Below, one piece after another: positions 1,672 to 57,261 of a stretch of DNA of 64,000 nucleotides. The notes under the pieces were generated by a model, which did not search any database, was not told the DNA's origin, and saw nothing but the letters and a program-made list of their open reading frames with translations. Numbering within the stretch: the first letter of the stretch is position 1; each line of letters starts with the position of its first letter. A program made the translations under genes and the position numbers. The stretch is from positions 25,296,001 through 25,360,000 of the forward strand of contig NC_043022.1 of NCBI RefSeq assembly GCF_006345805.1. The letters run 5' to 3'. The DNA comes from Octopus sinensis (lineage: Eukaryota).

Positions 1672-1958
1672 ATTATTATATTATGAACTTCATTGGCTCA
1701 CAGCTGTTTCTGCTACAGATGCAGTGAGCTCATAGTTGAGTGCCTGAATAACACCTTATTGATTCATTGGAGCTGAATCCACGACATCTTATAGCAGAAA
1801 TAGCTGTAAGGTAATGAAGTCCATAAGATAATCATATATTTCTTTTTCTCCTCTCTTTTTTTATTACTGCTCTATATTCATCTAGCACTCTGTTTTGAAA
1901 TATGCGTATATTGAGTTCTACACCAGGTTATTAACCTTGGAATGCCGAAATGAATAAT
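1672..1958 (+). mobile_element. Non-autonomous PLE-type terminal element with inverted 5' copy and degenerate HHR
   Basis: Arms ttatgaacttcattggctcacagctgtttctgcta / tagcagaaatagctgtaaggtaatgaagtccataa; GAAA-(c/t)agctg-TA stem III relic; microsatellite flanks. Confidence 0.45.
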
Positions 1959-2006
1959 GTGTGTGTGGTGTGTGTATGTGTATATATAATATATATATAT
2001 ATCTAT

Positions 2007-2060
<54 letters not shown>

Positions 2061-2099
2061 TTCATCAATATATATATATATATATGTACATATATATAA

Positions 2100-2131
<32 letters not shown>

Positions 2132-2835
2132 GTACATTATAATACATACCTCACCTTTTATCAGCAGCTGATAGAATGAATAATAAGAGAGCATTGCTGG
2201 CTTTTATGAATGATGGTGTTGCCTCACTTTTTATAAACCTCCAGAACCTTCCGTGACCAGCCGAAAATTTGAGAAAGCAAAATACTGTCCGTTTATGTGT
2301 AAAAGCTATACACTTTAAAGTGATAAGAAAACGATATTTATTCCTATCACTAATACGATGTGTGTGTGTGTGTGTGTGTGTGTGAATTGGTTTCTTTCTC
2401 TTTTATGTAACTGAAGAAGGAATAGGTGACTTCTGATCAGTTGTGCATGCTCCATTCGGGCATCTCTGGATTCATTTGTGTTCTTGTAATAAACATTGTG
2501 ATGCTGTTCATGAGTTACCTTGGCTCAGTCCTCTCTTCATCACATCCCATTTCATGCCATCTCACATCATCTTATGCTTGAAGTAGATTATTACTTACGT
2601 GAAGTTAAACATGTGAAATACCAGTCAATTTAAACTACCCTTTTCAGGACGTTCGTTTCCCCTCCATTGCTTTCACTGGTGAATTGTATGTATTTAATCA
2701 TGATACCTTTTTACAGGTTGGTGTGGACTGAGTCAGTGAATTTTTTTTGCCACGAACATAATGTAGATGACTAGGCAGCGTTTGATGAGTATTTGAATGA
2801 CAGATCACTGGAATTCTTGGTTAGGACATTGTTGA

Positions 2836-3054
2836 CCCTTTAGCATTCAGATTTTTCTTGTCAAATCTAATGCTTATTTATTCACATTGATTTGAATTAA
2901 TCATGCATTACCCCATAGCTTCAAGATTTTGATGAGGAAACTTAATTTTTAGAACGATATTGTAGGGTTGGCGTGAGAGGCCTGATCTGTCCAGTTTGAA
3001 CATAAAACAGGTAGAATATTTTGGCTGGATATGGCCAGTTCAAATGTTAAAGGG
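2836..3054. mobile_element. piggyBac-type MITE
   Basis: TIRs ccctttagcatt / aatgttaaaggg flanked by ttga / ttaa (TTAA target, one side mutated). Confidence 0.65.
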
Positions 3055-3209
3055 TTAACACACTGCTAAGTTGACATAGTGGTGAATATAAACCTCTAAA
3101 TTGACAGACTACTAATTTGACATAGTGGAAAATTGACCTTAGAGGTAGCTTGACATACTCATAAATTAACACAGTGACGGGTTAGTGTGCTGGTAAGTCA
3201 CTATAACAA

Positions 3210-3310
3210 TAGATTGACAGAATTGTATGTCAACACTGATAGATTGACAGGATGGCATGTCAGCACTGATAGATTGACAGATGGTATGTCAACACTAATA
3301 GATTGGCACA
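3210..3310. repeat. ~30-bp tandem repeat with internal hairpin (ttgaca..tgtcaa), about 3 copies in a larger degenerate region
   Basis: tagattgacag-N-tgtca(a/g)cact(g/a)a repeated. Confidence 0.6.
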
Positions 3311-3971
3311 GTAGTAGATAGACAAATTGGTAGATTGCCAGACTGGTTAATCGATGCACTATAAGTTTTATATCTCAGTAGATTGACATTCTTGTAATTT
3401 GTCAACGCTACATGTTAGCTCATAATTGGTCACCGTAATGTTAATTTGGCCTGATTGGTACGAGATTAACAAGAATGAGATTTTGCCCCAAAGTTATGTC
3501 GATTTAATGGTAGGTCAAAAACATTTGTAGGTGACACAGCTATAATTTGACACAGGGATAGGACTGTGTAGTGATAGTTTGGTATAAAAGGCAACAAAGC
3601 TGGTAGAGTGACATCACCATCTGGTCAAATAAACTGATTCATCGGTGGGGAGAGAGACATTATTAGAAATTATATGGGCCACCTTGTATAATAATGACTT
3701 TAAAAACAAAATATTTATTATAGAGTGCGTTGGGTGTGAGAGAGTCAGTGAGAGAAATGTCTGTACATATGTGTGGATGGGGGTCTGTGTTGTTGTTGTT
3801 GTTGTTGTTCCTGTATACTGGTGCTGTTGTTATTGTAGTAGTTGTTTTAATTCTAATATATCTTTCCTCTCCAAGTCTCTCGCTCTCTCACTCACTCTCT
3901 CTCTCCCTCTCTCTAAATGCTAATTGTTACAACGAACAGTTATATTTGTTTTTATCCTTTTTTTTGTTTTC

Positions 3972-4005
<34 letters not shown>

Positions 4006-5084
4006 CATTATTATTATTATTATTTATCTTTGAAGCTTGTCAGTATTTCTTAGAATAGGAAAACCCCCCCTCGCAAAAAATTTTTTTTTTAAGATTGTTG
4101 GCGATGAAGAAAAAAGAAATGATTATCATTGCTATGATGATGACGAAGATGATGATGATGATGACGACGACGATAACAATAACGATGATGATAAATATTT
4201 AAAATGATGATGTTGGTGTTGTTGTTGAATTATGCTGCTAATAATAATAATAATAACAGTGGACAATTGGGTGTTGTTTTTTCTCTTCTTTATTACCTAT
4301 TTTTTTTTATAATTTTCTTTCTTTATTTTTATTGTTGTTTTTATTTTTTTTGTAACTTTATCCCAAAATAGACATAAAAATATAAAAACAAAGCAACAAA
4401 AAATTTTTATATATACATATATATATAAATATATATATGTATATATACACGTATACATATATATATGTGTACATATATATAGAAATAATATATAAAATAA
4501 ATTCTAATAATATATATAATATAATATATATATATGAAATCAGAGAACTGCTTGCCAGCTTGCTAAAAGTACCCCTCCCCCTCACCAAAAAACCACAAAC
4601 AAAACAAGATATATATAATAATATTAATAATCTATTCAGAATTTTTCTTTTTTTTTTCTTTTTTGTTTTTTTACAAAATGCCAGTCTTGTTTTTTTTTTT
4701 GTTGTTGGTTTTATTTTCATTTCTTAAACTTTTAATCTTTTGTTTCATTTTGTTTATATTTTTCTTGTCTCTGTCCCCTTCCCCCCACTCTCTCTTCTCT
4801 CTCTCTCTCTCTCTTTTCTCTCCACTTGTCTTCGATTCCTCTTCCTCCTCTATTTCTCCATCCAGCATCCAGGAATATAAATATAAATCTATCCATATAT
4901 ATATACATATATATATATATGTATGTATGTATGTATATGTATGCATACGTTTCTGAGATGAGGTAAAATATTTCTAGATTTAGTAAAGATTCATTTGAAC
5001 CAACAAACTTCAGCTTTTGTGTTATTTTCTTTTGTTGTTATTTTATTGTTATTTTCTTATAGCACTGTGTTTACATCAATAAAA

Positions 5085-5124
<40 letters not shown>

Positions 5125-5244
5125 AAAAAAATACAAACTGGGACAAGAACGCAAAACATTTAGAAGACAATACAAAAAACACGGATGGGACATTCGAAGC
5201 CTTCAATCTTCAATCAAGAACCGGATCATCCTTGCGTGTGTGTA

Positions 5245-5530
5245 TTTTAGGAAGTTGAAAGTTATGGCTGGTCATAGAGAGACTATTGGTTTCACACCTA
5301 TACATAAAGTGCTTCGCTGTATAGGCGATTCGTCAGACTCAAATGGCTGAAGGTTATGCACCTTTGAGCATTTTAGTCCGATAAGTCACTTATACATCTA
5401 AGCGCTTTGTAAATGTGAAACTGATGGTTGCTCTATGACTGGCCATAACAATTAACTTCCTAAAAAATATATTACTGCTCTAATGCTTTAGAATGTACTT
5501 TTTTTTCAGGTACATGAATTACTGATGACG
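5245..5530. mobile_element. Inverted-dimer non-coding element carrying hammerhead motifs
   Basis: Arms ttttaggaagttgaaagttatggctggtcatagag...tttcaca / tgtgaaac...ctctatgactggccataacaattaacttcctaaaa. Confidence 0.6.
5277..5340 (-). ncRNA. Type-I hammerhead ribozyme motif
   Basis: Minus strand: gagt CUGACGA a tc gcctataca-loop-tgtataggt gt GAAA ccaata GUC tctc; 9-bp stem II, GUC cleavage triplet. Confidence 0.65.
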
Positions 5531-5544
5531 TGTGTGTGTGTATA

Positions 5545-5577
<33 letters not shown>

Positions 5578-5674
5578 CGGGAAGCTTTATGAAAATAAAC
5601 AAAAGACGAAGGCAGGTGGAAAACAGACGAACAATTGTATTAGTATGGCGCTCAGGAAATATAAATAAAACAAG

Positions 5675-5712
5675 TCTTTAACGTTTCGAGCCTACGCTCT
5701 TCAACAGAAAGA
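5675..5712 (-). ncRNA. Minimal hammerhead ribozyme in Penelope pLTR
   Basis: tcttt CUGUUGA a gagc-gtag-gctc GAAA cGUU aaaga; stem I tcttt/aaaga; palindromic AACGUU stem III typical of dimeric PLE HHRs. Confidence 0.75.
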
Positions 5713-6451
5713 TACACAGAGAGAGAAAACACAGAAAGAAGGAGAGAAAAAAATGCGTGCAGTAGCTAACGAATCAACATGGCGATCTGATTTCGGCCAG
5801 AGGTCAAAGATTCAAACATGAGACGGAGAGCGAAATAAGGGGAGATAATAGCGTTGATAAATGGGTTGAGGGACCAGCTAATAGTACGTAGGAGGGGTCT
5901 GGATGTGTGTATGTATAGGGTTGGTGTATGTATTAGTATGTATAAGGGTGTGTGTGTGTGTGTATGAGAGTATTAGTGCGTAGGATTGGTCTGGACGTGC
6001 GTATGTATGGGGTTGGTGTATGTATTAGTATGTATTAGTATGTATTAGTACGTATTGGTATGTATAATGTGTGTGTGTGTGTATGAGAGAGTATAAGTGC
6101 GTATGCGGGGTCTGGACGTGTGTATGTATAGGGTTGGTGTATGTATTAGTATGTACTAGTATATTAGTACGTATTAGTATGTATTAGTTTGTGTGTGGTA
6201 TTAGTATGGCACATCATATGTGATGTGATGTGTAAGTCATGTGGTGTAGTGAGGAGAAGAGGGGGAGGGAGATAAGGGGAGAGGGGGAAGATGAGAGGAT
6301 GGGGGAGGAGGGGGATGAAGGAGGAAAGAAGGGGAGAGGGAGTGAGGGAGCAGAGGGAAGGGGAAGAGGGAAGGGGAGTAGGGGTGAAAGGATGAAGGAC
6401 TGAAGAAGTAGGGGTCGGGGGAAAGGATAGGTGAGGAGGGGGGAGAGGGGG

Positions 6452-9250
6452 TTAGATGAGGAGAGTTGAGACCAAATGGCATATAAGAGCGAAGAGAGAA
6501 GATTAATTCCTGTTCACGGCGCAAACGGGAATCCGGATGGCCTCTGTGTAAGGACAAACCGAACACAGATAGGTGTTGCAAGGAGTGACCGGTGGAGCGG
6601 AAATGGCAGAACCGTTGTGTCGTTCGCAAGGTAGATGTCACGAAGGTGTTCCGCAAACTGGTCAGCCAAGCGGCGTCCCTTTTGTCCGATGTACAAGGAA
6701 TTGCAGAGAGAGCAAGAGATGCAATAGATAATATTGCTGGAGGTGCAGGTGAAGGAGTGGATGATGGGATAGGTCGATGGTGGGTGCTAGTGAGGCGGGT
6801 GGTGTTGGAGAGGTAAGGGCAAGTGCGGCAACGTGGGCGGGAGGCAGGGGAACGAGCCGGGTTGGGAGGTAGGGTCAGGGAAGGAGCTATGGACCAAAAG
6901 GTCTCGAAGGTTGTGGGCTCGTTTGAAAGAGGGGAGGGGTCGGTTAGGAAGAGGTGTGAAGTGGACGGGTCGGACTGGAGATGACGGAAAGCTCGAAGAA
7001 TGGTGCGTTGGAGACGTAGGGTCGTGGGGTGGTAATGAGGGGAAAAGGGAGGCGGGGAGACTACAGGGCGGGTTCGGGAGAGAGAGCAGATACACGGTCC
7101 ACGGACCGTGCTCTGGCAAGGGCGGTGTGTATAGTGGGTGAGGGGGTATCCACGTAGGGTGAAGTGGTGAGCATACGTTGAGACTGAGTCTCAAAGTCAT
7201 GGTCGTCACTACAGAGCCTACGTAGACGGAGGAATTGGAATAGGGGATGGAAAGCTTGGTGTGTTCTGGGTGGGAGGAAGAGAAGTTGAGGTATGAGTGT
7301 GAGTCTGTGTGTTTGTAGTGAATGGAGGTGGTAAGAGTGGAGTGAAGAATGCTAACCGAAATGTCGAGGAAGGAGACAGAGGTGTTTGAGATAGTGGAAG
7401 TGAAGTGGAGGGCTGGATGGAAAGATTGGACGAAAGAGAGGAAGGAATCTAGATGTTCGCGGGAGAGTGAGGTGGCACCGATAATGTCGTCAATGTAACG
7501 ACCATATAGTTCAGGAGTGGGACCAGTGAAATTAGAGAATATTGGGGCCTCAACATAGCCAATGAACAAGTTCGCATAGTTGGGGCCCATTCGCGTTCCC
7601 ATGGCCACTCCCGAGACCTGATGGTAGAACTCGCCCGCGAACGAGAAGCAGTTCAGAGTAAGGACAAGTTCGGCCAGACGAATGAGTGTGGAGGTGTCGG
7701 TACAGGTCAGGGTTAGAGCGGAGGTCAAGAAAGTGTCGAAGGGCCTGCAGTCCTTCGTGTGAGGGATAACAGTATAGAGGCTTTGGATGTCCATAGTAAA
7801 AAGGATTTTGGAGGAGCCGGGAGGAAAGGAGAAAGAGTTGAAAAGCCGGAGAGCATGGTTGGTATCGTGGATGTGGGAGGGAAGAGATGCCACCAGGGGG
7901 CAAGGACACGGTCGAGGTATTTAGAGATGAGCTCCGTGGGGCAGTTACAGGCGGAGACGATGGGGCGGCCAGGGTTGTTGGTTTGTGGATTTTGGGGAGG
8001 AAGTAAATGGTGGGGGTACGTGGGGTTCGCACAATTAGGTTGGATGCGGTGTGGGGGAGACGGGAGGACGAGATGAGGTCTTGGACAGTAGAGGATACCG
8101 TCTGTTGGTAGCTACATGTGGGGTTAGAGGGCAGAGGGGAATAGAAGGAGGTGTCATTGAGTTGGTGGAAAGCCTCGGCCCTATAGAGTCCCGCGCCACA
8201 CCACTACAGCTCCACCCTTGTCAGCCGGTTTGATGATAATGTCAGCGCGCCGTTGGAGGGAACGAAGAGCCAAGAGCTCAGCCGGGGAGATGTTGAGGCG
8301 GCGTTGGCGCCTGGAGAAGTTGAACCGCTCCAATGCACGCTGACAAGCGCCCGCGAAAAGATCCACTGCTACGATCTGGCCAAGGGCAGGCGTCCACGGG
8401 GATGGTCGGCGGCCCAGGCCAGTGAAGCAGTCCTCTTCGTTGGGTGTGGGTGGCGAGTCGTGGTAATGCGCACCCAACCGGACACGGCGCACAAAGCTGT
8501 GGACATCAACTCGCGTCTGGAATTCCTTACAGGATGGAGTGAGGGGATGAAACGCAGACCCCTACCAAGAACGGAGCGTTCACCGGCAGAGAGGGGAAGA
8601 TCGGGGGGAATGGTAACAACAGACGGAAGTGGAGAAGGGGTGGGTGAATAGAAGTAGGAGGGGTGGTATGTCTCGTGGAGGTCTGAGGGGGAGGGATTGG
8701 GGAAGTGTGGTGGGGGGTGGTTGGGCGGGGCAGTAGGGTTAGGTGTAGGTGGATGGAGCCTAACGGGAGGGGAGAAGGGGTTGTAGGGAGGGGCAGTGGG
8801 GTTAGGTGTGGGTGGATGGAGCCTATCGGGAGGGGAGAAGGGTGGTGGAGGAGTTGGGGTAGTGGCGTCGGGTAGGGTGGAATGGAAGAGTGATTGGAGT
8901 TTACGAAGTTTGGTATCAGAAAGAAATTGATGGAAGAGTTGATTCAAATGGATAATGAAGCGTAGCGTGTTTGGAGCATAGAGAGAGCGGCAGAGAGGAG
9001 AAGAAGGTGGAGAAAGCAGGAGGAAGAAGGCGGTTGATTGGCATGTAGTTTGGAGAGATTGGAGCGAATGGTGGCCCGCATAAGGCGGTAAGATGTGGTG
9101 CGGAGTATGGGTAAGATGGAAGAATCCGAGTGGAGAGCAGGGTGGAAGTGGAGGCGGAAACCTTTAGGGATGAGTCGGTGATGTAGGCAGCGGCTTAGGA
9201 AAGAGACATGGCTAGAGAAGCGGGTTTTTTTAAAAAGAAGTAGAGAGAGA
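6452..9250 (-). pseudogene. Frameshifted PLE polyprotein: reverse transcriptase + GIY-YIG endonuclease
   Basis: LFTMDIQSLYTVIPH, GVAMGTRMGPNYANLF, RYIDDI, SFLDI, C..PRCRTC linker, NIIYCISCSL..LYIGQKGRRLADQFAEH, REQELIFSLRSYMPFGLN spread over several frames. Confidence 0.92.
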
Positions 9251-9271
9251 TATATATATATACGATCAACA

Positions 9272-9600: not shown

Positions 9601-9611
9601 ATATATATATA

Positions 9612-9727
9612 AACGGTTTTTGTGTGTTTCTTAAATGGCTTATAAACACCTTCTACGTTGCAATTGTTTTTGTTCCAGCACACAATCTCAGATCAGGACA
9701 CTTGCTATGCAAGTGCATTTCTGTAAG
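9612..9727 (+). repeat. 3' fragment of the element at 41226-41457
   Basis: aacggtttttgtgtgtttcttaaatggc...cacttgctatgcaagt is similar to 41343-41457. Confidence 0.75.
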
Positions 9728-9755
9728 ATGTATATATATATACATACATACTTTG

Positions 9756-9925
9756 TTTAAAAGCAGCAGAAATATAATAACAAAACTGTCCGACGAATGG
9801 GACGTGAAACTCTGAGTAACACCTTTTGTTATTTTTCTGCTGCTTTTAAATAAAGAATATTACTCCACCTCTGGTATTTGGGTACTCATTTTTTACACCT
9901 TGTTTCACATTTATGTGTTTACTAC
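9756..9925 (+). mobile_element. Inverted-arm element with hammerhead-like core
   Basis: Arms tttaaaagcagcagaaatataataacaaaa / ttttgttatttttctgctgcttttaaa enclose tgt CCGACGA atg-gga-cgt GAAA ctc-t-gag UA aca. Confidence 0.55.
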
Positions 9926-10261
9926 GGTATGTATATATATATATAAAAAAACAAACAGAGAAACAAGACATACAACATAAAGAATATTCCCCTTCAGTTG
10001 TCTCTGTTTTGACTACTCCAAGGTAAGGACAAGACGCGACTTCGTTGAAGCAGTCCTTCCCGCAAAGCAAATTAAATAAAAATTTGGGATTTTTTGCGGA
10101 GGGTGAAAGTGGTGACAAGAACAGGACAGTGAGGACAAAACAGAAAAAACAATAAAAAAGTAAAAACAGTAAAAAACAATTAGAACAAAACAGTAAGGGT
10201 TGTTAAGCCAAGACGATGGAAAAATTATTCTGAACGTTTCTTCCAAAGGATGTTGTTTTCA

Positions 10262-10630: not shown

Positions 10631-10689
10631 TATTATTATTATTATTATTATTATTACTACAGTGTCAACTGTTCACTACCAGTGAACTA

Positions 10690-14082: not shown

Positions 14083-14118
<36 letters not shown>

Positions 14119-15801: not shown

Positions 15802-15987
15802 TATTTACATTATTTACATTTGACAGATATTTGTTCTCATCCTGTTTGTTGTTAACACAACGTTTCGGCTGATATACCCTCCAGCCTAAATCAGGTGTCT
15901 CGGAGAAATTTCGAACCTGGGTTTTCATTCTTTAAGTCGTCGTCGTCATCGTCGTTCAGGTCACTGCCTGGAATCGAACTCGGAATC
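15802..15987 (-). mobile_element. tRNA-headed HHR-tailed SINE, truncated copy with mutated core
   Basis: Homologous to 42361-42676; B box gagttcgattcc; gacac CUGAUUU a ggctg..cagcc GAAA cGUU gtgtt. Confidence 0.8.
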
Positions 15988-16150
15988 GCATCAACGCCAG
16001 CTAGTCGTGACTAGTCGACCCTACAACGACCACCTAGCAAAGTAAATAAAACACAAAAAACACGAAGTAAATAATTTTTTAAACAAAGTAAACAACACAC
16101 AAAAACACTGAGTAAGGATCGACTAGTCACGACTAGCTAGCGTGGATGCG
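15988..16150. repeat. Inverted-repeat element
   Basis: gcatcaacgccagctagtcgtgactagtcga / tcgactagtcacgactagctagcgtggatgc. Confidence 0.7.
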
Positions 16151-17846: not shown

Positions 17847-18103
17847 GGATCTTTTCCTTTTGAACGGCAGACAATTTCTAGTTAATTAAACACTTTAAAA
17901 CTTCGTATACCGGTAGAATGTGTCAAAATAAAACATTTTTTTCTCTTGGCCTTCTTGAGAAAATTGTAATTTGTTTAACGTAGTTTAATTTTTCGAATTA
18001 TAACCAATCCTATGCTCTCTTTTGAGCTAAAATCATTTGCTGCGTCTAAAACTGAGACAACATCCTGTAACTAACCCTAAACCTCCCCCCTAACCCTAAC
18101 CCT
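17847..18103 (+). mobile_element. Truncated Merlin-like MITE, related subfamily
   Basis: ggatcttttccttttgaacggcag ... taaccctaacccta; right TIR absent. Confidence 0.75.
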
Positions 18104-18261
18104 ATTGTTGTATTTCGGAATGGTCATTTTGCCAGTTTAGCCAATAAAAACACACGCACTATATATTTGGTGTTCCTTTGCTTCAGTGTTATTTATTTTT
18201 TACATTAATCTTTATCTTATTGACAAAACTGGCAAAATGACCATTCCTAAATACAACAATA
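18103..18261. repeat. Inverted-repeat element
   Basis: ttgttgtatttcggaatggtcattttgccagttt / aaactggcaaaatgaccattcctaaatacaacaa. Confidence 0.7.
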
Positions 18262-24810: not shown

Positions 24811-25078
24811 CTTGTGTACGAAACTGGGGCAACATTATACAAAACAATCACTGCACGTAGCCATTCCAGTCACCACATGAAAGCAGTTAGCACTTTTGGC
24901 CAGAGACAGACTCTGGATTCAGTCGATTCAGTAACAAGAATCAGCCTAGCAAGCATTAAAAATTATTTTCAAAGCAGTCAGATTCTGTGGTAGGCAAGGC
25001 CTATCATTACAAGGGCATGAACATGACACAGGAAACTTCATATATCACGTAAAAGAACTTGCTGAAGAAAGCAGTGCA

Positions 25079-25506
25079 GGATCTTTTCGGTTTGAACGGC
25101 AGTTTTTAACATAATTTCTAGGTAACTAAAAAATTTTAAACTTCGTATACTGGTAGAATGTGTTTATAAAACATCTTTTTCTCTTGGCTTTATTGAGAAA
25201 ATTCTATAGTTTGTAAGATATTTGGTCTTTAATTTCTTGCATTTTGGCAATTTCAACCAATCAACGACCGTCTATTGAGGTGAAAACATTCTGTGCCGTA
25301 TGAATATGTCCCTCGTTTAAGAAACAGATTGGGTTTATTTACATTTGTGAAGAAAAAAATGATACCCTTCCCTCCACCCCTAACCCTAACCAACCCTAAC
25401 CCTAAAACAGATTGAAATGCAATAGATCGATACTAGGGTCATAATTATGGGTGACAATTTCATATGACACCGCTAGAAAAAACTGCCGTTCAAACCGAAA
25501 AGATCC
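25079..25506 (+). mobile_element. Merlin-like MITE with (TAACCC)n
   Basis: Same TIRs; 8-bp TSD gcagtgca. Confidence 0.9.
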
Positions 25507-26026
25507 GCAGTGCAGAAGTAAGTCAGTGGCTTAAACGTCAAGATAATTTCTCATCTGATACCATACAAAATGAAATCCTACAGCTATATATAGTAAAAGG
25601 CACTTGCCCAAGATGTCACGCATAACATCCTGTATAAGATAAGAAAAAACAAGTTGAAGACTCCATGTTTATTGGTATTAAATGTGATGGCACCAGTGAT
25701 TGCTCTGGCATGGAACAAGAATCAGTCATTGTCTGTTATATTTTTGAAGACCTGGATGCCTACAAACATTTTCTCAATTTTGATAATCCCCCTGACTGTT
25801 CTTCGGGGCCACTAAGGTTATTTTGGACATTTTTTGCTGCTTAAACATTTTGCTTGGTTCAAAGTTATGTTGCTTTTCATTTGATGGTGCTTGTACCTTG
25901 AGTAGAAACATTTCAAGCATACAGAGATTAAAAGACGTTTCCTCAAAACATATTTTGCACATTGCAAAAACCACTCTCTGGACCTTGTCCTCCAAGAAGA
26001 TGGCTCTACAGTTGCCATTGTAGTGT

Positions 26027-26972: not shown

Positions 26973-27424
26973 TATATATTTAACTACATATATGTATTTC
27001 AGTATCATGCATCTCAACATGTATGTATGGATTTCTACATGTAAGGGATGATTATAGATGGGTACTTCCGAGTGGAATCTGGGTGTTACCCCATTCGGAT
27101 TTGCGGTTGAGGGTGGGTTTGTATTCCACTATACAGACAGCTTCGGTGACGTGTCTTAGCATTGCCCCAGTGGCATGTGTAGATAGGATGTCTCTCTAAG
27201 GAGCCATTGTGGAAATCTACACCATGCTAATAGAAGATGGAGTTTGGTTTTTTCTCAGTGTAGTTCTCCAGGTGTTCTTTGAACCTATCATTGATGTTCC
27301 TAGAAGTCTCACCAACTCAGGGCACCGGTATAATCGCGCAAGTCCCTTCTTGGCACTTAATCTGGGGTACAGTGTTTTTGTTTTTGCAGTTCACATGTGT
27401 GTTTGTAGAACAGATTACACAATT

Positions 27425-28800: not shown

Positions 28801-29282
28801 ATATCATCGACTGGTCACCAGCCATTAAAGTTGCGGTCTTGTCCTTATACTCTTTTACTTGTTTCGGTCATTTGACTGCGGCCATGCTGGAGCACCGCCT
28901 TTAATCGAGCAAATTCATCCCAGGACGTATTCTTTGTAAGCCTAGTACTTATTCTATCGGTCTCTTAAGCCGAACCGCTAAATTACGGGGATATATATAT
29001 ATATATATGTCTATGTACACACATATGTGTGTTTGTGTGTCTGTGTTTGTCCCACCAACATTGCTTGACAACCGATGCAGGAGTGTTTACATCCCCGTAA
29101 TTTAGCGGTTCGGCTTAAGAGACCGATAGAATAAGTACTAGGCTTACAAAGAATACGTCCTGGGATGAATTTGCTCGATTAAAGGCGGTGCTTTAGCATG
29201 GCCGCAGTCAAATGACCGAAACAAGTAAAAGAGTATAAGGACAAGACCGCAACTTTAATGGCTGGTGACCAGTCGATGATAT
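28801..29282. repeat. 192-bp near-perfect inverted duplication (fold-back)
   Basis: 28801-28992 vs 29091-29282, about 2 mismatches. Confidence 0.95.
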
Positions 29283-41195: not shown

Positions 41196-41225
41196 AATAA
41201 TAATAATAATAATAATAATAATAAT

Positions 41226-41457
41226 CGATTCACTTCAACATTTAAGTTTAATTTGTCAAAATATTTTTGTCAGTGAACAGGTCGCGGTCTTAAAGCGACG
41301 AAAATATTTTGACAAATTAAACTTAAATGTTGAAGAGAATCGAACGGCTTTTGTGTGTTTCTTAAATGGCTTACAAACACTTTCCACGCTGCAATTGTTT
41401 TCGTTTCAGCACACGATCTCAGATCAAATCACTTGCTATGCAAGTACGTCTCCGTAA
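41226..41457 (+). mobile_element. Inverted-arm element with degenerate HHR
   Basis: ~46-bp arms 41226-41271 / 41297-41342; gtcgc-loop-gcgac GAAA aTATt ttgac; in (taa)n. Confidence 0.55.
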
Positions 41458-41782
41458 TAATAATAATGATAATAATAATAATAATAATTAACAATCGTGT
41501 GTGTTTATTTTAATTGCCTACTAATGTATACTGTACGTTTCTCTGCCCTAGGTGTCAGGAAGACACTCGGCAAATAATGGAAACAATGAAATGTTGATAA
41601 TGATAATAATAATAATAATAATAATGTAAAGGTATATCTGTCTGCCTGTCTATTAATCTGTTTGTCCACCTGTATATCTGTCTATCCATGTATGACTATG
41701 CATGGCTATTTGCAAAATTATTGCATACATATACTTGCATACATTTGTGTGTGTTTGTGTGTACGCGTGCGTACGTGTTTGT

Positions 41783-41936: not shown

Positions 41937-41996
41937 AAAGTCCGAATATATCAAAGTTGAGCAATATATTGCTCAACTTTTATATATTCGAACTTT
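41937..41996. repeat. 60-bp palindrome
   Basis: aaagttgagcaata|tattgctcaacttt perfect 28-bp core. Confidence 0.85.
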
Positions 41997-42170
41997 ATAG
42001 AATATGCCGATGAACTTCTAAACACGTCATGCCATTACACCAATAAGCGCTTGTAAACAGCCGAAGAGCCACGTGGTTTTTTAATCAGAAACAAGGCTGC
42101 TCAATGAGAATATGGATATTATTACATTATTTACATTCGACGGTTATTTGTCTTCATCTTGTTTGTTGTT

Positions 42171-42216
42171 AACACAACGTTTCGGCTGATATACCCTCCG
42201 GCCTTCATCAGGTGTC
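42171..42216 (-). ncRNA. Minimal hammerhead ribozyme
   Basis: gacac CUGAUGA a ggccg..cagcc GAAA cGUU gtgtt. Confidence 0.8.
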
Positions 42217-42548
42217 TTGGAGAAATTTCGAACCTGGGTTCTCATTATTAAAGTATTTTTCGATGTTGTTGTTGTTGTTGTTATTATTATTCAGGTCACT
42301 GCTTGGAATCGAATTCAGAATCTTGGGTTTAGTAGCCCGCGCTCTTAACCCCTACGGCATATGCCGTAGTGGTTAAGAGCGCGGTTCCGAGTTCGATTCC
42401 AGGCAGTGACCTGAATAATAATGATGATAATGATAATAACAATAATGATGATAATGATAACAATAATGAGGAGGATGATGATGATGATGATAATAATAAC
42501 ATCGAAAAATACCTTAGGAATGAAAACCCAGATTCGAAATTTCTCCAA

Positions 42549-42594
42549 GACACCTGATGAAGGCTTGAGGGTATATCAGCCGAAACGTTGTGTT
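42549..42594 (+). ncRNA. Minimal hammerhead ribozyme
   Basis: gacac CUGAUGA a ggct..agcc GAAA cGUU gtgtt. Confidence 0.8.
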
Positions 42595-42744
42595 CACAAC
42601 AAACAAGATGAAGACAAATATCCGTCGAATGTAAATAATGTAAATAATTCCTCATCTCTTAAATATCGAACTGGATAATATGGATGTTCAATAAGCAACA
42701 ATTACTCGTTTCCTTGGAAGAATGGATGCACTTCTATACAAGTT

Positions 42745-42897: not shown

Positions 42898-42940
<43 letters not shown>

Positions 42941-43540: not shown

Positions 43541-43573
<33 letters not shown>

Positions 43574-43823: not shown

Positions 43824-43837
43824 TTTAAAAAATTTTT

Positions 43838-43990
43838 GTTAGTTTCTGCGCGTGACCGTTTCTTCAGACGACCATGGCTGTCTGAAGAAGCAACTACACG
43901 TGGAAACTAGTGAGTAACGACAAATAACACTACCAAATGGACTGCCTCTGTAACCTGTATTGAGTCCTTCAGACTTCATCAATTTATTAC
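43838..43990. mobile_element. Head-to-head dimer with hammerhead cores
   Basis: Centre cca|tgg (43874/75); CUGAAGA...GAAA ct on both strands; plus copy GAAA cu-agug-ag UA acgac. Confidence 0.6.
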
Positions 43991-44317: not shown

Positions 44318-44361
<44 letters not shown>

Positions 44362-45632: not shown

Positions 45633-45681
45633 TTACTACTACTAGTACTAGTACTACTACTACTACTACCACCACCACCAG

Positions 45682-45718
<37 letters not shown>

Positions 45719-46073: not shown

Positions 46074-46120
<47 letters not shown>

Positions 46121-46125
46121 GCTGC
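45633..46125. repeat. (TAC/CAC/TGC)n trinucleotide block
   Basis: Direct inspection; similar block at 34750-35001. Confidence 0.95.
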
Positions 46126-46437
46126 TTTGTAAAAAAATTGTCTGGGAATCCAACTAGGTTACATAAATGAGTATTGGACTAGGCAAATCTACTCAAATCG
46201 AAGGAATGAAAACTAAAACCTTGGAACTGTAGATTTGATATAATCATCGAAATCAGAATGACAAAACCAAATCGGGATTCCAAAATGTCTTGAAGAATAA
46301 AAGGTAGGGGGAAAAACCCCACTTCATGATCGATATCCAGCAAAACTCGACATAGAGGAAGAAAGCTTAAGTGAATGATGCCAAAATTGGCTCAAATGCT
46401 AATGGCGAAATCAGAAAACGCATAGGAAAAATAAATA

Positions 46438-46578
46438 TTAGGTTGTCCCAAAAGTTCGTAAACACTTGCGAAAATTGAATTTTTATTCGCCAAGTACTAA
46501 CAAAAACAACAAAAATTATTCCTCAAAATAAAGACCTTTATTTTCCAAGACTTTCTACGAACTTTTGGGACAACCTTA
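46438..46578. mobile_element. Tc1/mariner-type MITE
   Basis: TA-flanked TIRs ttaggttgtcccaaaagttcgta / tacgaacttttgggacaacctta. Confidence 0.8.
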
Positions 46579-47401
46579 TAGATAAATAAATAAATAAAGG
46601 CCTGAAAAAGAGGTAAAAGTGGTATAGAGCAAGGAGCCCCCAGTTTCCTTGTCGTCGACCTATGATATTGAGGGGGGGGGTAGCGATTACTTTCGTCATT
46701 CTTTGAATTGCAACTGTAGTATTTTGGAAAAAAGTAGCTTTTGGGACGTCTTGCTGTTATTGTTGATGTCTCAGTTGCCCCTCCCCTCTACTTTTCTTCA
46801 CAGTTTCTTCTCTTAAGGGCAGAAAACCCTTATGTGGAAATTTATTGCCACTATCCTGTACAACCAAAGTAATGTCATTCATTTTAGATTTAGGGTGGAA
46901 TGTGGTCTTTGAGGACGGAAGTATCATCGGAAACTGTAATCTACATACAAAACCCACTCGACCGCTCGACCGAATATCGTTTTAGGTCATTCGGCAATTA
47001 TAATCATATCTTTACAGTATGTGAGACGAATAATTGCGAAGATCAAGGTAAAATATATCGGAGTCTACTTTTGACCCAGAATCTTCGCTACTTTTATGAC
47101 ATTGATGATCAACACAAACCTATAATGGCGACAATTTACCCCTCACACTGTGTGTGTGTGTGTATATATATGTATGTGTGTGTGCCCCACCACCTCTTGA
47201 CAACCGGTGTTGGTTTGTTTACGTCCTCGTAACCTAGCGCTTCAGCAACAAGAATTGATAGAATATGTACCAGGCTTAAAGAAAATCGGTACTGGGAACG
47301 ATGCATTCTGATTAAAAATTCTTCAAAGCGGTGCCCCAGCATGGCCGCAGCCTAATGACTGAAGCAAATAAAAGATTAAAAAGTACATATTATTGCTGTT
47401 T

Positions 47402-49631: not shown

Positions 49632-49765
49632 GGGAGAGTTTACTAAAAAAACAAAAGACGAAGGCAGGTGGTGTACAAAACAAACAGATGTATTAGTATA
49701 ACGCTCAGGAATAGAAAAAGTCTTTTACGTTTCGAGCCTACGCTCTTCTACAGAAAGGGACACAG
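49632..49765 (-). mobile_element. Solo Penelope pLTR with HHR (49721-49758)
   Basis: Homologous to 5577-5720; cttt CUGUAGA a gagc-gtag-gctc GAAA cGUA aaag. Confidence 0.85.
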
Positions 49766-50579
49766 CGGAATTATTAGCACGACGGAGTAAGGCTTAGCGG
49801 TATGTCATCCGTCTTTATGTTCTGAGTTCAAATTCCGTTGAGGTCGACTTTGCCTTTCATTCTTTCGAGGTCGATAGAATAAGTACCAGTTGAAGGACAG
49901 TTACCTATTGTAGAAAAAATTACTTGATGTAAAAGTTTGTTGTTATCGTTGCTTCTTTGGTGTTGTAGCTTAGCCCCAGGTGAATCCTGATCGCATTCTA
50001 GCCGTGACCATCCCTTCTCTTTCCATGTGTATCCAACGTATTTTTTTATAGAACGGCAGATCTGAGAAGGACTAACTGTTATTTTTAACAAGTTAAGTGA
50101 ATCTTATTTGGAATGCACATTATTCTAAGCCTACAATGTCTCAAGGATCCTTTGATAACCATTAAGGGCGCTATAGTTGACCACCTTCTTAATGTTACAT
50201 TAAACTATATCACATTAGACAAGCATAGAAAACCTGTTAGAAACTGAAGAAGATCTGGAACTTCAAACAGTCCAGGGGAATCAGCGTCAAGCTGTTCGTT
50301 GCAACTGTCGAATCAGCGCTGTCATATGGCAATGAAACGTGGATACTGACAAAGAGATTATCAAACGGGCTAAATGGATGCTACACAAGGATGCTACGAA
50401 TAACCCTAAGTGTAAAATGACAGCAACATATGCCAAACAAATGCTTTTACGAGACATACCGAAAGTTAGCGAGAAGGCAGCTGCTATTATCTTGTCACTA
50501 CGGGCGCCATCCTGAATTGGAAGCGTCCAAATCAGTCTTGTAGAACTCATTTCATGGTGATTGTAAGCAGAAAAAAAAA

Positions 50580-50957
50580 GGAGTGGCTGTGTGGTAAGTA
50601 GATTGCTTACCAGCCACATGGTTCCGGGTTCAGTCCCACTGCGTGGCACCTTGGGCAAGTGTCTTCCACTATAGCCTCGGGCTGACTAAAGCCTTGTGAG
50701 TGGATTTGGTAGACGGAAACTGAAAGAGGCCCGTCGTATATATGTATATGTATGTGTGTTTGTGTGTCCATGTTTGTCCCCCCCAACATCGCTTGACAAC
50801 CGATGCTGGTGTGTTTACGTCCCCGTAACTTAGCGGTTCGGTAAAAGAGACCGATAAAATAAGTACTAGCCTTAAAATAAGTCCTGGGGTCGATTTGTTC
50901 GACTAAAGGCGGTGCTCCTGCATGGCCGCAGTCAAGTGACTGAAACAAGTAAAAGAG
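50580..50957 (+). mobile_element. SINE family B
   Basis: Full copy. Confidence 0.9.
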
Positions 50958-51035
50958 TGTTCGTACTACTTCCTCCACCTTGTTTTGCACTTATATGCTC
51001 ACCTCTGTGTGTGTATATACATACATACACACACA

Positions 51036-51085
<50 letters not shown>

Positions 51086-51343
51086 ATATATATAATATAT
51101 ATATATATATATGTGTGTGTGTGTTTTGTGTCCTTGAGTAAAACACTTCCTCTCGCTTGCAAATCACTTCAACACCTGACCCGTGGTACATTTGTGCACC
51201 CGTTCAGACAACGTTGATTTTGCCGCGGGGAGTGAACTAATCGTATGCGCAGGTCATTCAGCAGAAACTGAACACTCATATGTCATCCTCAGCAGCAGAA
51301 TACATCATGTGTGTGTATGTGTGTATGTATGTATGTATATATA

Positions 51344-51720
51344 TAGGCGCAGGAGTGGCTGTGTGGTGAGTAGCTTGCTAACCGGCCGCGTGGTTCCGGG
51401 TTCGGTCCCACTGCGTGGCATCTTGGGCAGGTGTCTTCTGCTGTGGCCCCGGGCCGACCAATGCCTTGTGAGTGGATTTGGTGGACGGAAACTGAAAGAA
51501 GCCTGTCGTGTATGTGTATGTATGTGGGTGTTTGTGTGTCTGTGTTTGTCAACCGATGCTGGTGTGTTTACTTCCCCGTCACTTAGCGGTTCGGCAAAAG
51601 ATACCGATAGAATAAGTACTGGGCTTACAAAGAATAAGTCCTGGGGTCGATTTGCTCGACTAAAGGCGGTGCTCCAGCATGGCCGCAGTCAAATGACTGA
51701 AACAAGTAAAAGAGTAAAAA
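51344..51720 (+). mobile_element. SINE family B
   Basis: Full copy. Confidence 0.9.
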
Positions 51721-51748
51721 GAAAGAGTATATATATAATATATATATA

Positions 51749-52143
51749 TCTTTATATATAAAAGTAAGGTTGTGTGTCTGTCTCCTACGATTTAGATTCC
51801 TAACTACTCCCACATTTTGCGGTGCAGTTTAACCAAAACCGGGTATCTTATAGTCGTGATTCATATCGAGCTATTCTGGGTATTAGCGCGCGTCTACGTT
51901 GAGTCTACGATTTAAAAAAAAAATTACCATAATTTTTTCCATTTTAATGCATTTTTTCGCTATATATAAGGGAAGTAACTCTCTAAAAATGTCTACGATG
52001 AGTCAACGATTTAAAAAAAATTTACCATAATTTTTTTTTCCATTTTTAATGCATTTTTTGCTATTTTTTGGCTATAACTCTCTAATAATGCTTATATATT
52101 TATTTCCCTTACAAACCCGAGCAACGCCGGGCGATACTGCTAG
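51749..52143 (+). mobile_element. Non-autonomous Helitron
   Basis: TC...cccgagcaacgccgggcgatactgCTAG in (TA)n; copy of 23739. Confidence 0.85.
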
Positions 52144-52164
52144 TATATATATATATATATTATA

Positions 52165-52195
<31 letters not shown>

Positions 52196-52526
52196 CAGGC
52201 ACGTACTATCAGTAATTACTGAGTGTAGGCAGTTGGTGACGTTTATGTAGAAAAAAAAAAAGGAAAAGCGAAACACAGGGGTGCGAATGGGTTTGAGGCA
52301 GATTTACTTCTGCCTTTAGAGCGCGTAAAGAAAATGTCGTTGTAGGAATGTACGCAGCACGTGTACTATGCGTTGTTTTAATACTGAGATTGATTGGCAG
52401 GGGCGAATCATGCCTACCTAATCTACAAAAAAGTAAAATATTTTGCTTTTATGCATAATAATCAGAGTAATGTGTGTGTGTATGATTGACCGCTAGATCC
52501 AAGTTTTTAAATTTTCTCTGTTAGTA

Positions 52527-52662
52527 TCCTCGTGTTCCTTTCTGTTGAAGAGCGTAGGCTCAAAACGTAAAAGACTTTCTCACCTTCCCGAGCACTAACT
52601 AATACACCCGTTTCTTGTTTATACACCTGTCTTCGTCTTTTGTTTTTCTGTAAATTTCAACT
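52527..52662 (+). mobile_element. Solo Penelope pLTR, HHR with GAAA->AAAA
   Basis: cttt CUGUUGA agagcgtaggctc aaaacgtaaaag; abuts (TA)n. Confidence 0.85.
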
Positions 52663-52809
52663 ATATATATATATACATATATATATATGTATGTATATGT
52701 GTATATATGTATGTATGTATATGTGTATATATGTATGTATGTATATGTGTATATATGTATGTATGTATATGTGTATATATGTATGTATGCATATATGTAT
52801 GTGTATGTA

Positions 52810-52854
<45 letters not shown>

Positions 52855-53209
52855 GTGTATATATATATGTATGTATATATGTATGTGTGTATATATATAT
52901 GTATGTATGTGTATATGTATGTGTGTGTGTATATATATATATATATGTATGTGTATATATATGTGTGTGTATATATATATGTGTGTGTATATATATGTAT
53001 GTATATATGTATGTGTATATATATATGTATGTGTGTATATATATATGTATGTATATATGTATGTGTATATATATATGTATGTGTGTGTATATATATATAT
53101 ATGTATGTATATATGTATGTGTATATATATGTATGTGTGTATATATATATATGTATGTATATATGTATGTGTATATATATGTATGTATATATGTGTATGT
53201 ACATATGTG

Positions 53210-53259
<50 letters not shown>

Positions 53260-53503
53260 ATGTATATATGTGTATATATATATGTGTATATTATATATGT
53301 GTATATATATATTGTATATGTATATATGTGTATATATATATGTGATATATATGTGTATATGTATATATGTGTATATGTATATATGTGTATATATTATGTG
53401 TGTATATATATATGTGTGTATATATATATGTGTGTATATATATATGTGTGTATATATATTGTGTATATGTATATATATATATATTAATATATATATATGT
53501 GTT

Positions 53504-53545
<42 letters not shown>

Positions 53546-53546
53546 A
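52663..53546. repeat. (TA/TG)n compound microsatellite
   Basis: Direct inspection. Confidence 0.95.
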
Positions 53547-53960
53547 TCTATATATATAAAACTCAACTTGTGTATCTGTGTGTTTAACTTCCCGGCACAT
53601 CTCCTCCTAGCCAACAAATCGTAGAACCACCAAAAATGGGTCACTTAAAGTTTAGGCGAATGAAAATTGAACTGCGCTATTTCTGTTCCGAAATTCATCT
53701 CGCAAGTGCAAAAATCGATAATGTGTTTGTTTAGGCCTTATTCCATGCATTGAATGGTGAACTTTACTCAGTCAGCTGTTTGACGTGAACTGTGTTCACC
53801 ACGCGTGCAAGCATGCGTAAATTGCATGAAAAATCAAGATATAAAAACGAATCGCCGTAAACGTAGAAATTCGGCAAAGAAATGAATTTTCGGGATGTAG
53901 CCTGGAGGGTTTTTTCGTATTAATATATATATAAATATATCATCATATATATATGTATAA

Positions 53961-53989
<29 letters not shown>

Positions 53990-53991
<2 letters not shown>

Positions 53992-56900
53992 TCCCTTGCT
54001 CTAGATCCCGCTGCAACACTTGCCCCTTCATCACCAACACCACCGCTGTCACCGGCTCCAACCTGCATACTGTACGCATTAGGCACTCTTTTACGTGCAC
54101 CTCGTCTGGCCTTATTTACTGCATTAAATGCAACCTATGCGGGATGCTGTATGTAGGACAGACGGGACGGCCGGTTGTCCGACCGTTTCACTGAACACTT
54201 GAGGACGTTCGCCTACACTCTTTTTCTCCCGTCGCACGCCACTTCCGCTCGTCCGGCCATTCCTAGATGACATCTGTGTCTCGCCTCCCCACAATGGTCG
54301 CCCACTTTCCAGGCTCCACTTGGAGCAACGCTACATCTTCCCCTACAAACTACCACTCCACACGGACTTAACACAGCCCCCTCCTCTTGAGATCCGTTTT
54401 TTTTTTTTGTTTGTTTTTTTTTCCCGGACACACCACCCACACACAGCCACCCACCTACCTCCCACACGCCTGTTCACACACACACATACGTAGACCCATC
54501 TACGTACATACATTCACACTTTAATCACACACACTTACAGACATACTTGCACCACTAACATACAAACCAACATGCACATACACACAACACATACATACAC
54601 ACCACATACATACTTACACACACACACACACACACACAGACATACATACACACATACACACACATACATACGCACATACATACACACACACTCACACACA
54701 CACACCGCACGTACATACTTCACACCACACACATGCACACATACATGTAGGCACATACATACATACATATGCACACCCTTACACTGAATGCACACACACA
54801 CATACACCTTTTTGCATCCAGGCAGCCCCCCTCTTTCTGCTTTCCGGTTTTGGCTGATGGAACCTCGGTTCCCGCGGCGGGGCGTTCGAGGGCCTTTGCG
54901 CTCGCGCGCCTTGGCGCGCGCTGGGGGCTTGGTCGGGCCCCTGGGCTTGCGTTGTACTGCTTGTGCGTTGTGTGCGTGAGCGCGCTTCGTGTGTGTGGGG
55001 CTTGCTTCGGATGTGCGCATGCGTATGTATGCATACATACCACACACTCGCATGCATCCCTACCCACATACATACACACCACACCTACTCACACACACAC
55101 ATACACACACACACACACATACCTGCACACACACCACATACATACATACACACACATACCTACTTCAGACATACACACACACAGACTACACCCATACACA
55201 CATCACACATACACAGCCATACACCCTCACTCACACACCACATCTACACCTACACACACACACCAAACACACCAGACACACACCATACATACATACATCT
55301 ACACACACACGCCTACACACATACATCACACATACATAACACACACACATACACATCACACACATACGCACACACAACATTACTTATACCACATGCACAC
55401 ACACACACACATACATACATACAACCCATATACATACACAACCACATACACCTACAATACTCCTATAACGCACATACATACACACAGACATACACACATA
55501 CACACATACACACTCACACAAACACACACACACACATACTTACACACACACTCACCTGCACGCGCACACACATGCATGACAAACACCCATACACTCACAC
55601 TCACATACGCACCACACCAACATAAACACGCACACGCACACACACACCTACACTCCCACACACATACACACGCACCCTACATACACACACACACGCATAC
55701 ACACGCATACACACATACATTACACACGTACACACACACCTACATACACATGCATACAACACACACACAAACATGCACGGACACACCCAGACATAACACA
55801 TACACCTATATACACACGCCCCACACACTACATACACACACATATACACACGCCCACACACCTACATACACACACATACATACACACACATACACGGACA
55901 CACCCATACATACTTACATACATACACCTATACACACACGCCTACACACCTACATACACACACATGCATACACACACACACATGTACGCACATACACACA
56001 CATATACGCACATACATATATACCCACACACATGCACACACACACACATACGCACATGCATGCATGCATGCACACGCGCACACCTACACGCATACACACA
56101 CACACGCACGTACACATACATACATACACACCGCATACATACACCCATACACATACATGCATCCTACCACCATACATACACACTCACACATACATACACA
56201 CACACACACTCACTCACACACCTGTATGTACGCGCACACACATGCACATACACACACTTCCCCACACCCACACGTACATACATACACACTCATACACATA
56301 CACACACACACACGGACATACATCTATGCACACACATATACACACATACTCACATACATTCATCGGACACACTGACCCCAGACATACACACAGACACACT
56401 CACACATCCACACACATACATACTTACGCGCATACTCGCAGGCGCGCGCACACACGCGCTTGCGCCGGTTCGCGCACGCATACGCGCCGCATGCACCTCG
56501 CTCTTGGACCCGACGAGACCTCCCCGCCCGTTCCTGGGACCGTCGCTTGTCGTTGGGTTTTCCCACGCCCGTCTCCGCGGGACCACTCTTCCATCTTCCC
56601 TCAGCTGGAGTCCTTTTTCCTTAACCCCCCCCTTTTTCGTTACACACACGCGCACACATATACACACATTGCTTAAAATATACATTACTCTTACACACAT
56701 TCATCTACTCGCCATTAATACTACCACGACACTGGACACACACACACACTACTACTCAACACACACGCTGGCACGCTACATACGCCCCCACCCCTTCCCC
56801 TCCCTCCCTTCCCCTCCTTCCTTCTTTTTCTTACTACTGACCTTTGTCTGCTATGCTGACCACTGTCTCGCCCTACCTCACACGCCTACACACAGACGCA

Positions 56901-57261
56901 CACACTAACACATACATATATTTTTTGTTTTTTTTATCTCGCCTCACACACACACATCACACACACACACACATACACACCCGCACACACTCACACATAC
57001 ACACACATCTGTTGCGTTACCAACCTTGTCTCCACTCTTTTGCCTTTTAAAAACCTACTTTGCTCTTGTTATCGTAAACATCCGCCTTTCACCATGTGCA
57101 AACTCGTAAACACCAGTCGTTTTTTTTCTCTATCCCTGTTGCCCGCTCTGGGATCTTTCTTTCCTCTCTCTTCCTTCTTTATGTTTCCGACGAAGAGCTC
57201 GCTCGAACGTCATCATAACCTCCCTGCTTCCATTTCCTGAGCGCCTATAATAATAATACTT
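53990..57261 (+). mobile_element. Second PLE remnant: GIY-YIG end, expanded (CA/TA) 3' region, pLTR
   Basis: HSFTCTSSGLIYCIKCNLCGMLYVGQTGR..DRFTEHL..EQRYIF..PHGLN at 54084-54372; ccgacgaagagc-tc-gctcgaacgtc and tttcctgagcgcc at 57187-57245. Confidence 0.75.

Follow-up and report, generated by a model that had tools for sequence, protein, structure and literature searches.

The 64,000-nucleotide stretch of the Octopus sinensis genome considered here (contig NC_043022.1, positions 25,296,001 to 25,360,000; hereafter the window, whose coordinates are counted from its first letter) contains six short elements built as inverted pairs and associated with hammerhead ribozyme (HHR) cores, together with two bodies of Penelope-like elements (PLEs) and two solo copies of the PLE terminal repeat, the pseudo-long terminal repeat (pLTR). 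We consider it highly probable that the short elements are the ends, i.e. the pLTRs, of coding PLEs and that they are made in cis by the reverse transcriptase (RT) and GIY-YIG endonuclease (EN) of their own family. The coding link is established for four of the five families that occur in many copies.

Self-comparison by BLAST, combined with inspection of the sequence, places a head-to-head joint, with the 5′ ends inside and the 3′ ends pointing outward, at all six places for which the first-pass annotation had proposed a shared inverted architecture. That proposal stands for five families, named here after their positions in the window (1672, 5245, 9756, 41226 and 42121), which are multi-copy genome-wide; the sixth element, 43838, is a single decayed hairpin at a single locus, and the full extents (Table 1) are larger than had been noted. 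The units are unrelated in sequence to one another, as had been supposed, and also to the pLTRs of the PLE bodies in the window. The solo pLTRs and the two PLE bodies are likewise present, the solos belonging to the family of body A, but the microsatellite setting given for most of the elements does not apply to 42121: its (AAT)n is internal, and the flanks carry a 9-bp target-site duplication (TSD), AATATGGAT. This insertion has a tail of about 28 nt on its right arm only. The hairpin at 42283-42422 was also considered as a nested short interspersed element (SINE) and rejected, the stretch belonging to both pLTR arms of 42121. Family searches, run with one arm each, gave 3691, 1413, 531, 828 and 470 first-look candidates for the five families, which are not copy numbers; for each search 40 candidates were scored and 30 were fetched (loci are designated below by L numbers).

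Table 1. Features of the window
Feature	Position	Strand	Remarks
Family 1672, head-to-head pair	1642..1954		minus arm 1778-1642 stops at inner end; plus arm 1774-1954 bears ~95-nt tail
Family 5245, two head-to-head pLTRs from an old PLE	5245..5527		EN/linker like that of family 9756
PLE body A (RT, GIY-YIG, pLTR 5576-5760), frameshifted	5576..9240	-	pLTR family takes in solos 49632 and 52527
41226-family piece	9611..9730	+	5′-truncated, 87% identical
Family 9756	9748..9930		forward pLTR, HHR core CCGACGA at 9790, tail to 9930; inverted 38-nt arm 9748-9785
Further 42121-family copy	15802..15989	-	head plus body, inner end
GIY-YIG fragment	27055..27424	-	71-76% (amino acids) related to 41226 parent reading frame
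Family 41226	41225..41458		forward pLTR, HHR core GUGAACA at 41273, start of reading frame, tail to 41458; inverted arm 41225-41271; target (TAA)n
Family 42121, one insertion, two head-to-head pLTRs	42118..42676		tRNA-like head, (AAT)n, HHR 42211 minus and 42554 plus
TSD of the 42121 insertion	42109..42117	+	left copy; right copy 42677-42685
tRNA-like head with A-box- and B-box-like motifs	42355..42416	+
Decayed single-locus inverted pair	43837..43912		HHR-like core CUGAAGA...GAAA; no family found
Solo pLTR, body-A family	49632..49768	-	core variant CUGUAGA
Solo pLTR, body-A family	52527..52665	+
PLE body B: GIY-YIG end, long CA-rich 3′ untranslated region, pLTR	53985..57261	+	HHR-like core near 57187

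Judged by contiguity elsewhere in the genome, four of the families (42121, 41226, 9756 and 5245) are the pLTRs of four different coding PLE families. For 42121, RT and GIY-YIG lie directly upstream in L026, and 18 of 25 loci anchored on the RT piece run from EN through the tRNA-like head to the hammerhead body; the tail enters the start of an open reading frame (ORF) in L402 and L404-406 (the last three being near-identical contigs), and the parent matches Pfam RVT_1 (E 6.5e-9). Upstream copies of 41226 are 95-97% alike over 1.5 kb and include an open EN (Pfam GIY-YIG E 0.0012, below the cut-off; Atlas 0.97), while L238 has an open RT+GIY-YIG frame of 1042 codons, with Atlas RT/HTH_animal/GIY-YIG clusters at 0.96-0.98 and a 41226 unit at its end. 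At least eight loci (L248-250, L254, L255, L257-259) have this unit entering the ORF start, and the parent family is young. A 3′ untranslated region (UTR) of about 1.3 kb joins the 9756 unit to the EN of an RT+GIY-YIG PLE; with a 1.5-kb flank, 7 of 20 loci anchored on EN have the unit downstream of it in the same orientation, and RT is present in L425, L428, L430 and L431. The link for 5245 is weaker than for the other three, consisting of upstream sequence (L089, L068) that matches the EN (E 9e-5) and the linker (E 8e-7) of the 9756 parent.

None of the four linked families shares sequence with the PLE bodies of the window, and body A is not autonomous, since its coding sequence is split over several frames. 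The position of the short elements 'beside an autonomous Penelope', as the first-pass annotation had it, therefore reflects PLE density only. Several PLE families have a long 3′ UTR in which (CATA)n, (TA)n or (CA)n is abundant (L186 845-1960, L162 450-1500, window 54400-57100), so that some of the microsatellite sequence 5′ of copies is internal to the element. As a separate observation, an LTR-retrotransposon-like gag-pol stretch (L237 2657-6705) interrupts one copy of the 41226 parent PLE.

Units begin at a 5′ point that clusters a little before the hammerhead, and they stop at either of two fixed positions in the ORF start. In 41226 the ATG sits at +115, so that both ends, +147 (inner) and +207 (outer), fall within coding sequence; two fixed ends are also apparent in the best-hit sets of 5245 and 1672. 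Pairing of the arms was scored in position-sampled sets, which are less biased than best-hit sets: 30 loci of 41226, chosen for a G start and reduced to 28 after two were dropped as the same insertion, and 30 of 9756, reduced to 25 after removal of five same or duplicated insertions. The inverted fraction and the variability of the inversion points, for which a check had been proposed, bear out an asymmetric arrangement, with 19 of 28 distinct 41226 insertions and 18 of 25 of 9756 inverted (9 and 7 copies, respectively, not inverted) and with junctions and ends differing among copies. An inverted upstream partner was likewise present in 23/30 (42121), 19/30 (5245, duplicates included) and 11/30 (1672) loci of the best-hit sets. 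Of the 19 pairs of 41226, 18 have one arm ending at +205-209 and the other at or before +150, and 16 of the 18 pairs of 9756 have one outer and one inner end; two outer ends in one pair were found in none of the inverted 41226 and 9756 samples. Tails range from 28 to 95 nt. TSDs of 9-10 bp are visible at targets other than microsatellites (L269, L285, L295 and the 42121 insertion of the window), and in (TA)n the TSD is lost.

Four cores in the window (9790, 41273, 42211 and 42554) pass a structured descriptor of the minimal HHR, into which the G3-C8 variant was put only after that core had been seen; shuffled sequence gave a mean of 1.0 (sd 1.08), with four or more cores in 2 of 100 shuffles. 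No hammerhead was among the matches listed (150 of 235) in an Rfam scan of the window. The earlier statement that each element has an HHR core, degenerate in some, is true by this descriptor of the window copies of 9756, 41226 and 42121 but not of those of 1672 (decayed core CCAAUGA), 5245 and 43838, which fail it; a core is present in other family copies of 1672 and 5245. For 41226 the C[U/C]GANGA core previously assigned is actually GUGAACA. When family cores were located by their flanking context, 42121 had CUGAUGA or CUGAAGA in 50 of its 64 arms, 9756 had CCGACGA in 66 of 86, 41226 had GUGAACA in 94 of 114 (G3 in 113 of 114) and the 49632 family had CUGUAGA in 25 of 25 copies, and the cores of 5245 (15 arms) and 1672 (20 arms) were mostly CUGANGA or CpG-decayed forms. 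By the descriptor, 41226, 9756 and 42121 have the core boxes, stems I-II and palindromic stem III of minimal type I hammerheads, and family 41226 has a natural G3-C8 core in what is a predicted ribozyme. GUGAAGA (G3-G8) occurs in 7 of 114 arms of this family (L254, L255, L257, L259, L265, L266), possibly as an intermediate toward G3-C8.

Folded as monomers, the HHRs of the window mostly do not stand out from shuffled sequence, which is the behaviour to be expected of minimal HHRs. The alternative that 9756 is a mere long HHR stem I was rejected, its left arm being a variable inverted copy. A transcript across the head-to-head pair is predicted, for 41226 and 42121, to fold into one long hairpin that buries the hammerhead. 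Because the two hammerheads lie on opposite strands and this hairpin sequesters them, the pairs are not retrozyme dimers, and dimer cleavage of the retrozyme type would not be expected of them.

A further regularity concerns the 5′ end of 41226, where exact matches have G before +1 in 486 cases and native upstream sequence in 386. The first 100 of 980 exact matches to the 5′ motif were classed by eye: 31 are native or near-native, and the other 69 end no more than a few bases from one site, comprising 25 with G before AG, 7 with A, 5 with C (one more native base) and 1 with T, together with 16 that begin one base later and 15 two bases later. Among the 33 that keep the +1 AG with G, A or T before it, 25 have G (binomial p 1e-9 at 25% G; p 1e-7 after dropping four junction-ambiguous copies), and in an independent set the counts were G 10, A 1, C 1 and native 10, so that G accounted for 10 of 12 non-native cases. 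Copies with native upstream sequence show staggered truncation. Since each of the four main sequence variants includes both G and native forms, the G is added per insertion event; of the 19 pairs, 13 have it on the inner-ended arm, 5 on the outer-ended arm and 1 on both arms. An extra G at the 5′ end of full-length retrocopies, as in L1-type insertions, represents the reverse-transcribed cap, and the non-native G in 41226 is likely a copied RNA cap as well. Our literature search found no prior account of a cap-derived G, nor of one at PLE junctions. A spliced first exon giving GAG|ATG in this family is disfavoured, the bases upstream of the G being heterogeneous.

We propose that such copies could arise by two-sided priming on a capped sense RNA, with the G recording the cap, a proposal for which we see the chances as evenly balanced. 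The inner and outer ends would correspond to the two internal RT start sites known in vitro for a PLE; the PLE protein would nick both target strands, and one cDNA would be primed per start site with the sense RNA as template. Both cDNAs would reach, or stop near, the 5′ end of the RNA and then join head-to-head, and the extra G in 41226 would be the copied cap, marking the start of transcription. An RNA starting in the pLTR would carry the tail near its own 5′ end, and priming there would therefore copy the pLTR only, whereas RNAs reading through a tandem would yield the longer, 5′-staggered copies. Hammerheads would then simply travel with the pLTR and would not drive a retrozyme cycle. We give about even odds that PLE transposition yields solo and head-to-head pLTRs as its primary products; the end pattern and the G would favour two-sided sense priming over the published antisense self-priming.

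Several observations weigh against this picture, on the mechanistic as well as on the coding side. Most partner arms of 41226 end 3-50 nt short of +1, and in the 49632 family the starts are spread and the copies mostly not inverted. The cap-like G is clear in one family only: in 9756 the ends cluster near the hammerhead with no extra G found, and 5245 has no fixed G end, 20 of its 22 exact matches having native upstream sequence. In addition, the +1 site of 41226 resembles a 3′ splice acceptor (a branch-point-like CTAAC, pyrimidines, AG), which would also suit an end produced through splicing. A Pfam search was blank for the 41226 and 9756 ORFs, and the clade names are tentative ones given from motif likeness, 42121 being putatively of Poseidon type and 9756 and 5245 of Nematis type. 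No coding parent of 1672 was found upstream of it, or downstream of its tail (54 matches, 8 of them fetched), and searches of this genome gave no contiguity with RT/GIY-YIG for either 1672 or 43838. Family 1672 nevertheless shows two fixed ends, as the other families do, and its tail reads as an open frame (HIEFY...CLSE) that may resemble a PLE N-terminus.

Family 42121 has the tRNA-like head, a stretch followed by (AAT)n and placed between the stop codon and the hammerhead; its A-box- and B-box-like motifs were picked out by eye. A 19-mer of the head has 2131 exact matches. Among 30 position-sampled copies, 20 are without an upstream UTR match, so that the head is their first part, and in 22 the body lies in the same orientation no more than 900 nt away. 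ARAGORN called a tRNA at none of 30 loci and Rfam was negative on the one locus submitted; TTTT is absent from all nine matched full units. The head may be a captured RNA polymerase III (Pol III) promoter that lets short copies propagate, but it seems unlikely that there are thousands of self-transcribing, re-mobilised short copies amounting to a Penelope-dependent SINE with a hammerhead. Taken jointly, two-sided sense priming, such a SINE in 42121 and a natural G3-C8 core in 41226 make a picture that we regard as doubtful.

The first-pass annotation saw non-autonomous families that borrow the neighbouring PLE, which would mean independent retrozyme-like families whose short RNAs cleave themselves, form circles and are moved in trans by a PLE. 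Li et al. 2026 (bioRxiv 10.64898/2026.07.22.740005), in the part of their account that bears on this, derive retrozymes from pLTRs; in this genome, short copies are much more numerous than those with an ORF start (980 exact matches to the 5′ motif versus 38 ORF-start candidates), 1672 is without a parent, and direct tandem units do exist. In L263-L266 these are units of about 400 nt, each comprising 41226 pLTR, ORF start and hammerhead (e.g. L266 1225-2219), with additional tandem inner-ended units of about 170 nt in L264; the solo pLTR of the 49632 family forms tandem arrays at spacings of about 230 and 190 nt with microsatellite between (L393; G000:C28 near 9117134-9117832). Yet four of the five families run into their own RT/GIY-YIG ORF, short and long copies of 41226 have the same sequence variants, the head-to-head arms sequester the hammerhead, and retrozymes are defined as direct tandem repeats, an arrangement that we observed at few loci besides L263-266, L283/284 and L393, the window elements all being head-to-head. 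We therefore hold independent retrozyme-like families to be very unlikely. The L263-L266 units are the best candidates for true retrozyme-like derivatives, and the only candidates for a non-autonomous status are 1672, the short 42121 copies (by virtue of the putative internal tRNA-like promoter) and a few of the 41226 tandems of about 400 nt.

A different alternative agrees that the elements are ends of coding PLEs and disputes how they are made, invoking plain 5′ truncation of 3′-end copies, an inverted arm self-primed on an antisense template, solo pLTRs that are partly deletions and a G that is untemplated and not a cap. Staggered truncations and palindromic junctions do occur, and RT could stall in the microsatellite-like UTR that immediately precedes +1; but 69 of the 100 sampled 41226 copies stop near one site, downstream of that repeat tract, with G added at +1 on both arm types. 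Moreover, antisense fold-back predicts the same outer end on both arms, where the pairs show one inner and one outer, and intact 9-10-bp TSDs round solo and paired copies speak against deletion, so that this account is in our view rather unlikely. Finally, a short, non-coding inverted structure is what would be expected of a miniature inverted-repeat transposable element (MITE), a DNA transposon with terminal inverted repeats, and 43838 taken alone is unclassable. In the five multi-copy families, by contrast, inversion points vary, ends are asymmetric, many copies are not inverted and units are contiguous with RT/EN ORFs, and none has fixed symmetric terminal inverted repeats with a short fixed TSD. 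A MITE origin is refuted for these five and extremely improbable overall. With TSDs that are 9-10 bp or lost in (TA)n, the earlier view that PLE-type hammerheads were placed here by PLE machinery is upheld, for elements that we read as the ends of coding PLEs.

As to 43838 itself, a family sought in three ways yielded one candidate per arm, a degenerate pattern matching its own two arms only. The arms match at 22 of 33 positions and differ by 11 transitions and no transversions (hairpin z -4.75); because they differ by transitions only, it is a real, old and decayed inverted repeat. Other repeats of the window include an inverted repeat of 190 nt and 99% identity at 28801-29282, composed of parts of common short repeats head-to-head round a (TA)/(TG) spacer and with no hammerhead seen in it, and, at 25071-25513, a MITE-like element that has terminal inverted repeats of 37 nt and contains CCCTAA repeats. 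Further short elements of inverted-repeat or hairpin form, none with a hammerhead core, lie at 15987-16150 (abutting the 42121-family copy), 18103-18261, 46436-46580 and 41937-41996. A transposase remnant with 45-nt inverted repeats at 60304-60896 is, by its motifs, presumably Mariner-like. An assembly gap (57262-57361) cuts PLE body B directly after its pLTR.

For annotation the point is modest: hairpin-like repeats with the appearance of MITEs or retrozymes are the ends of PLEs, so that a count of ORFs alone underestimates how diverse PLEs are in this 2.7-Gb genome. Of greater weight is the mechanistic by-product, since head-to-head formation becomes directly testable with hundreds of young copies that have a fixed start, a cap-like G and an inner end paired with an outer one, and family 41226 offers both an intact-looking ORF and a predicted transcription start.

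The architecture, the opposite-strand hammerhead pairs and the pLTR origin of short hammerhead repeats are already published, as the relevant portions of the literature make plain, and a search on hammerhead, octopus and Penelope found no dedicated study. In the EN-positive PLEs, as far as the descriptions of Arkhipova et al. 2013 (PMC3846280) and Craig et al. 2021 (PMC8557442) extend, a 5′-truncated inverted copy likewise lies head-to-head with an optional one-arm tail, the first ORF codons lie within the pLTR, TSDs are 8-10 bp, targets are (TA)n and solo pLTRs occur. Here, unlike in those descriptions, the whole insertion is usually pLTR-only with tails of 28-95 nt. Both papers state the formation of the head-to-head repeats as an open question, and Arkhipova et al., where they discuss it, propose antisense self-priming and leave a sense template open.

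The PLE minimal hammerheads treated by Cervera and de la Pena 2014 (PMC4209133) share with ours a short stem I, an extra nucleotide before stem II and a palindromic stem III. The relevant part of that work also reports many unrelated minimal HHR families per genome and dual motifs on opposite strands at distances of 100-700 bp, and it attributes single motifs to PLEs that have been truncated. The cores differ in that 41226 has G3-C8 where U3-A8 is given there and in Perreault 2011 (PMC3088659), in U4C of 9756 and in A6U of the 49632 family. Metazoan non-LTR retrozymes, as characterised in the pertinent parts of Cervera and de la Pena 2020 (PMC7229834) and Li et al. 2026, are similarly short and non-coding, with a type I HHR and kinship to pLTRs, but they are direct tandem repeats that give circular RNA, whereas the elements here are head-to-head or single and belong to coding families. 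For the head of 42121, partial parallels are the SINE-like hammerhead repeats of Schistosoma, with a Pol III-type promoter beside the hammerhead (review, PMC6765202), and the tRNA-bearing LTRs of Helenus and Ajax, with a tRNA-like piece inside the terminal repeat (Kojima 2024, PMC10886601), to the extent that these accounts describe them. The head of 42121, whose Pol III role is putative, differs in that it lies on the 5′ side of the hammerhead and forms part of a coding PLE's pLTR.

The nearest experimental counterpart is PAc, a lizard element, for which Frangieh et al. 2024 (PMC11167929) report, in the portion that concerns us, that the PLE protein cuts and extends both strands in vitro, that two RT start sites inside the ORF start delimit the tail, that HHR cleavage is unnecessary for insertion and that C3G/G8C partly rescues cleavage. 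To this in vitro system the genomic record of the octopus adds the pairing of one inner with one outer end and the cap-like G.

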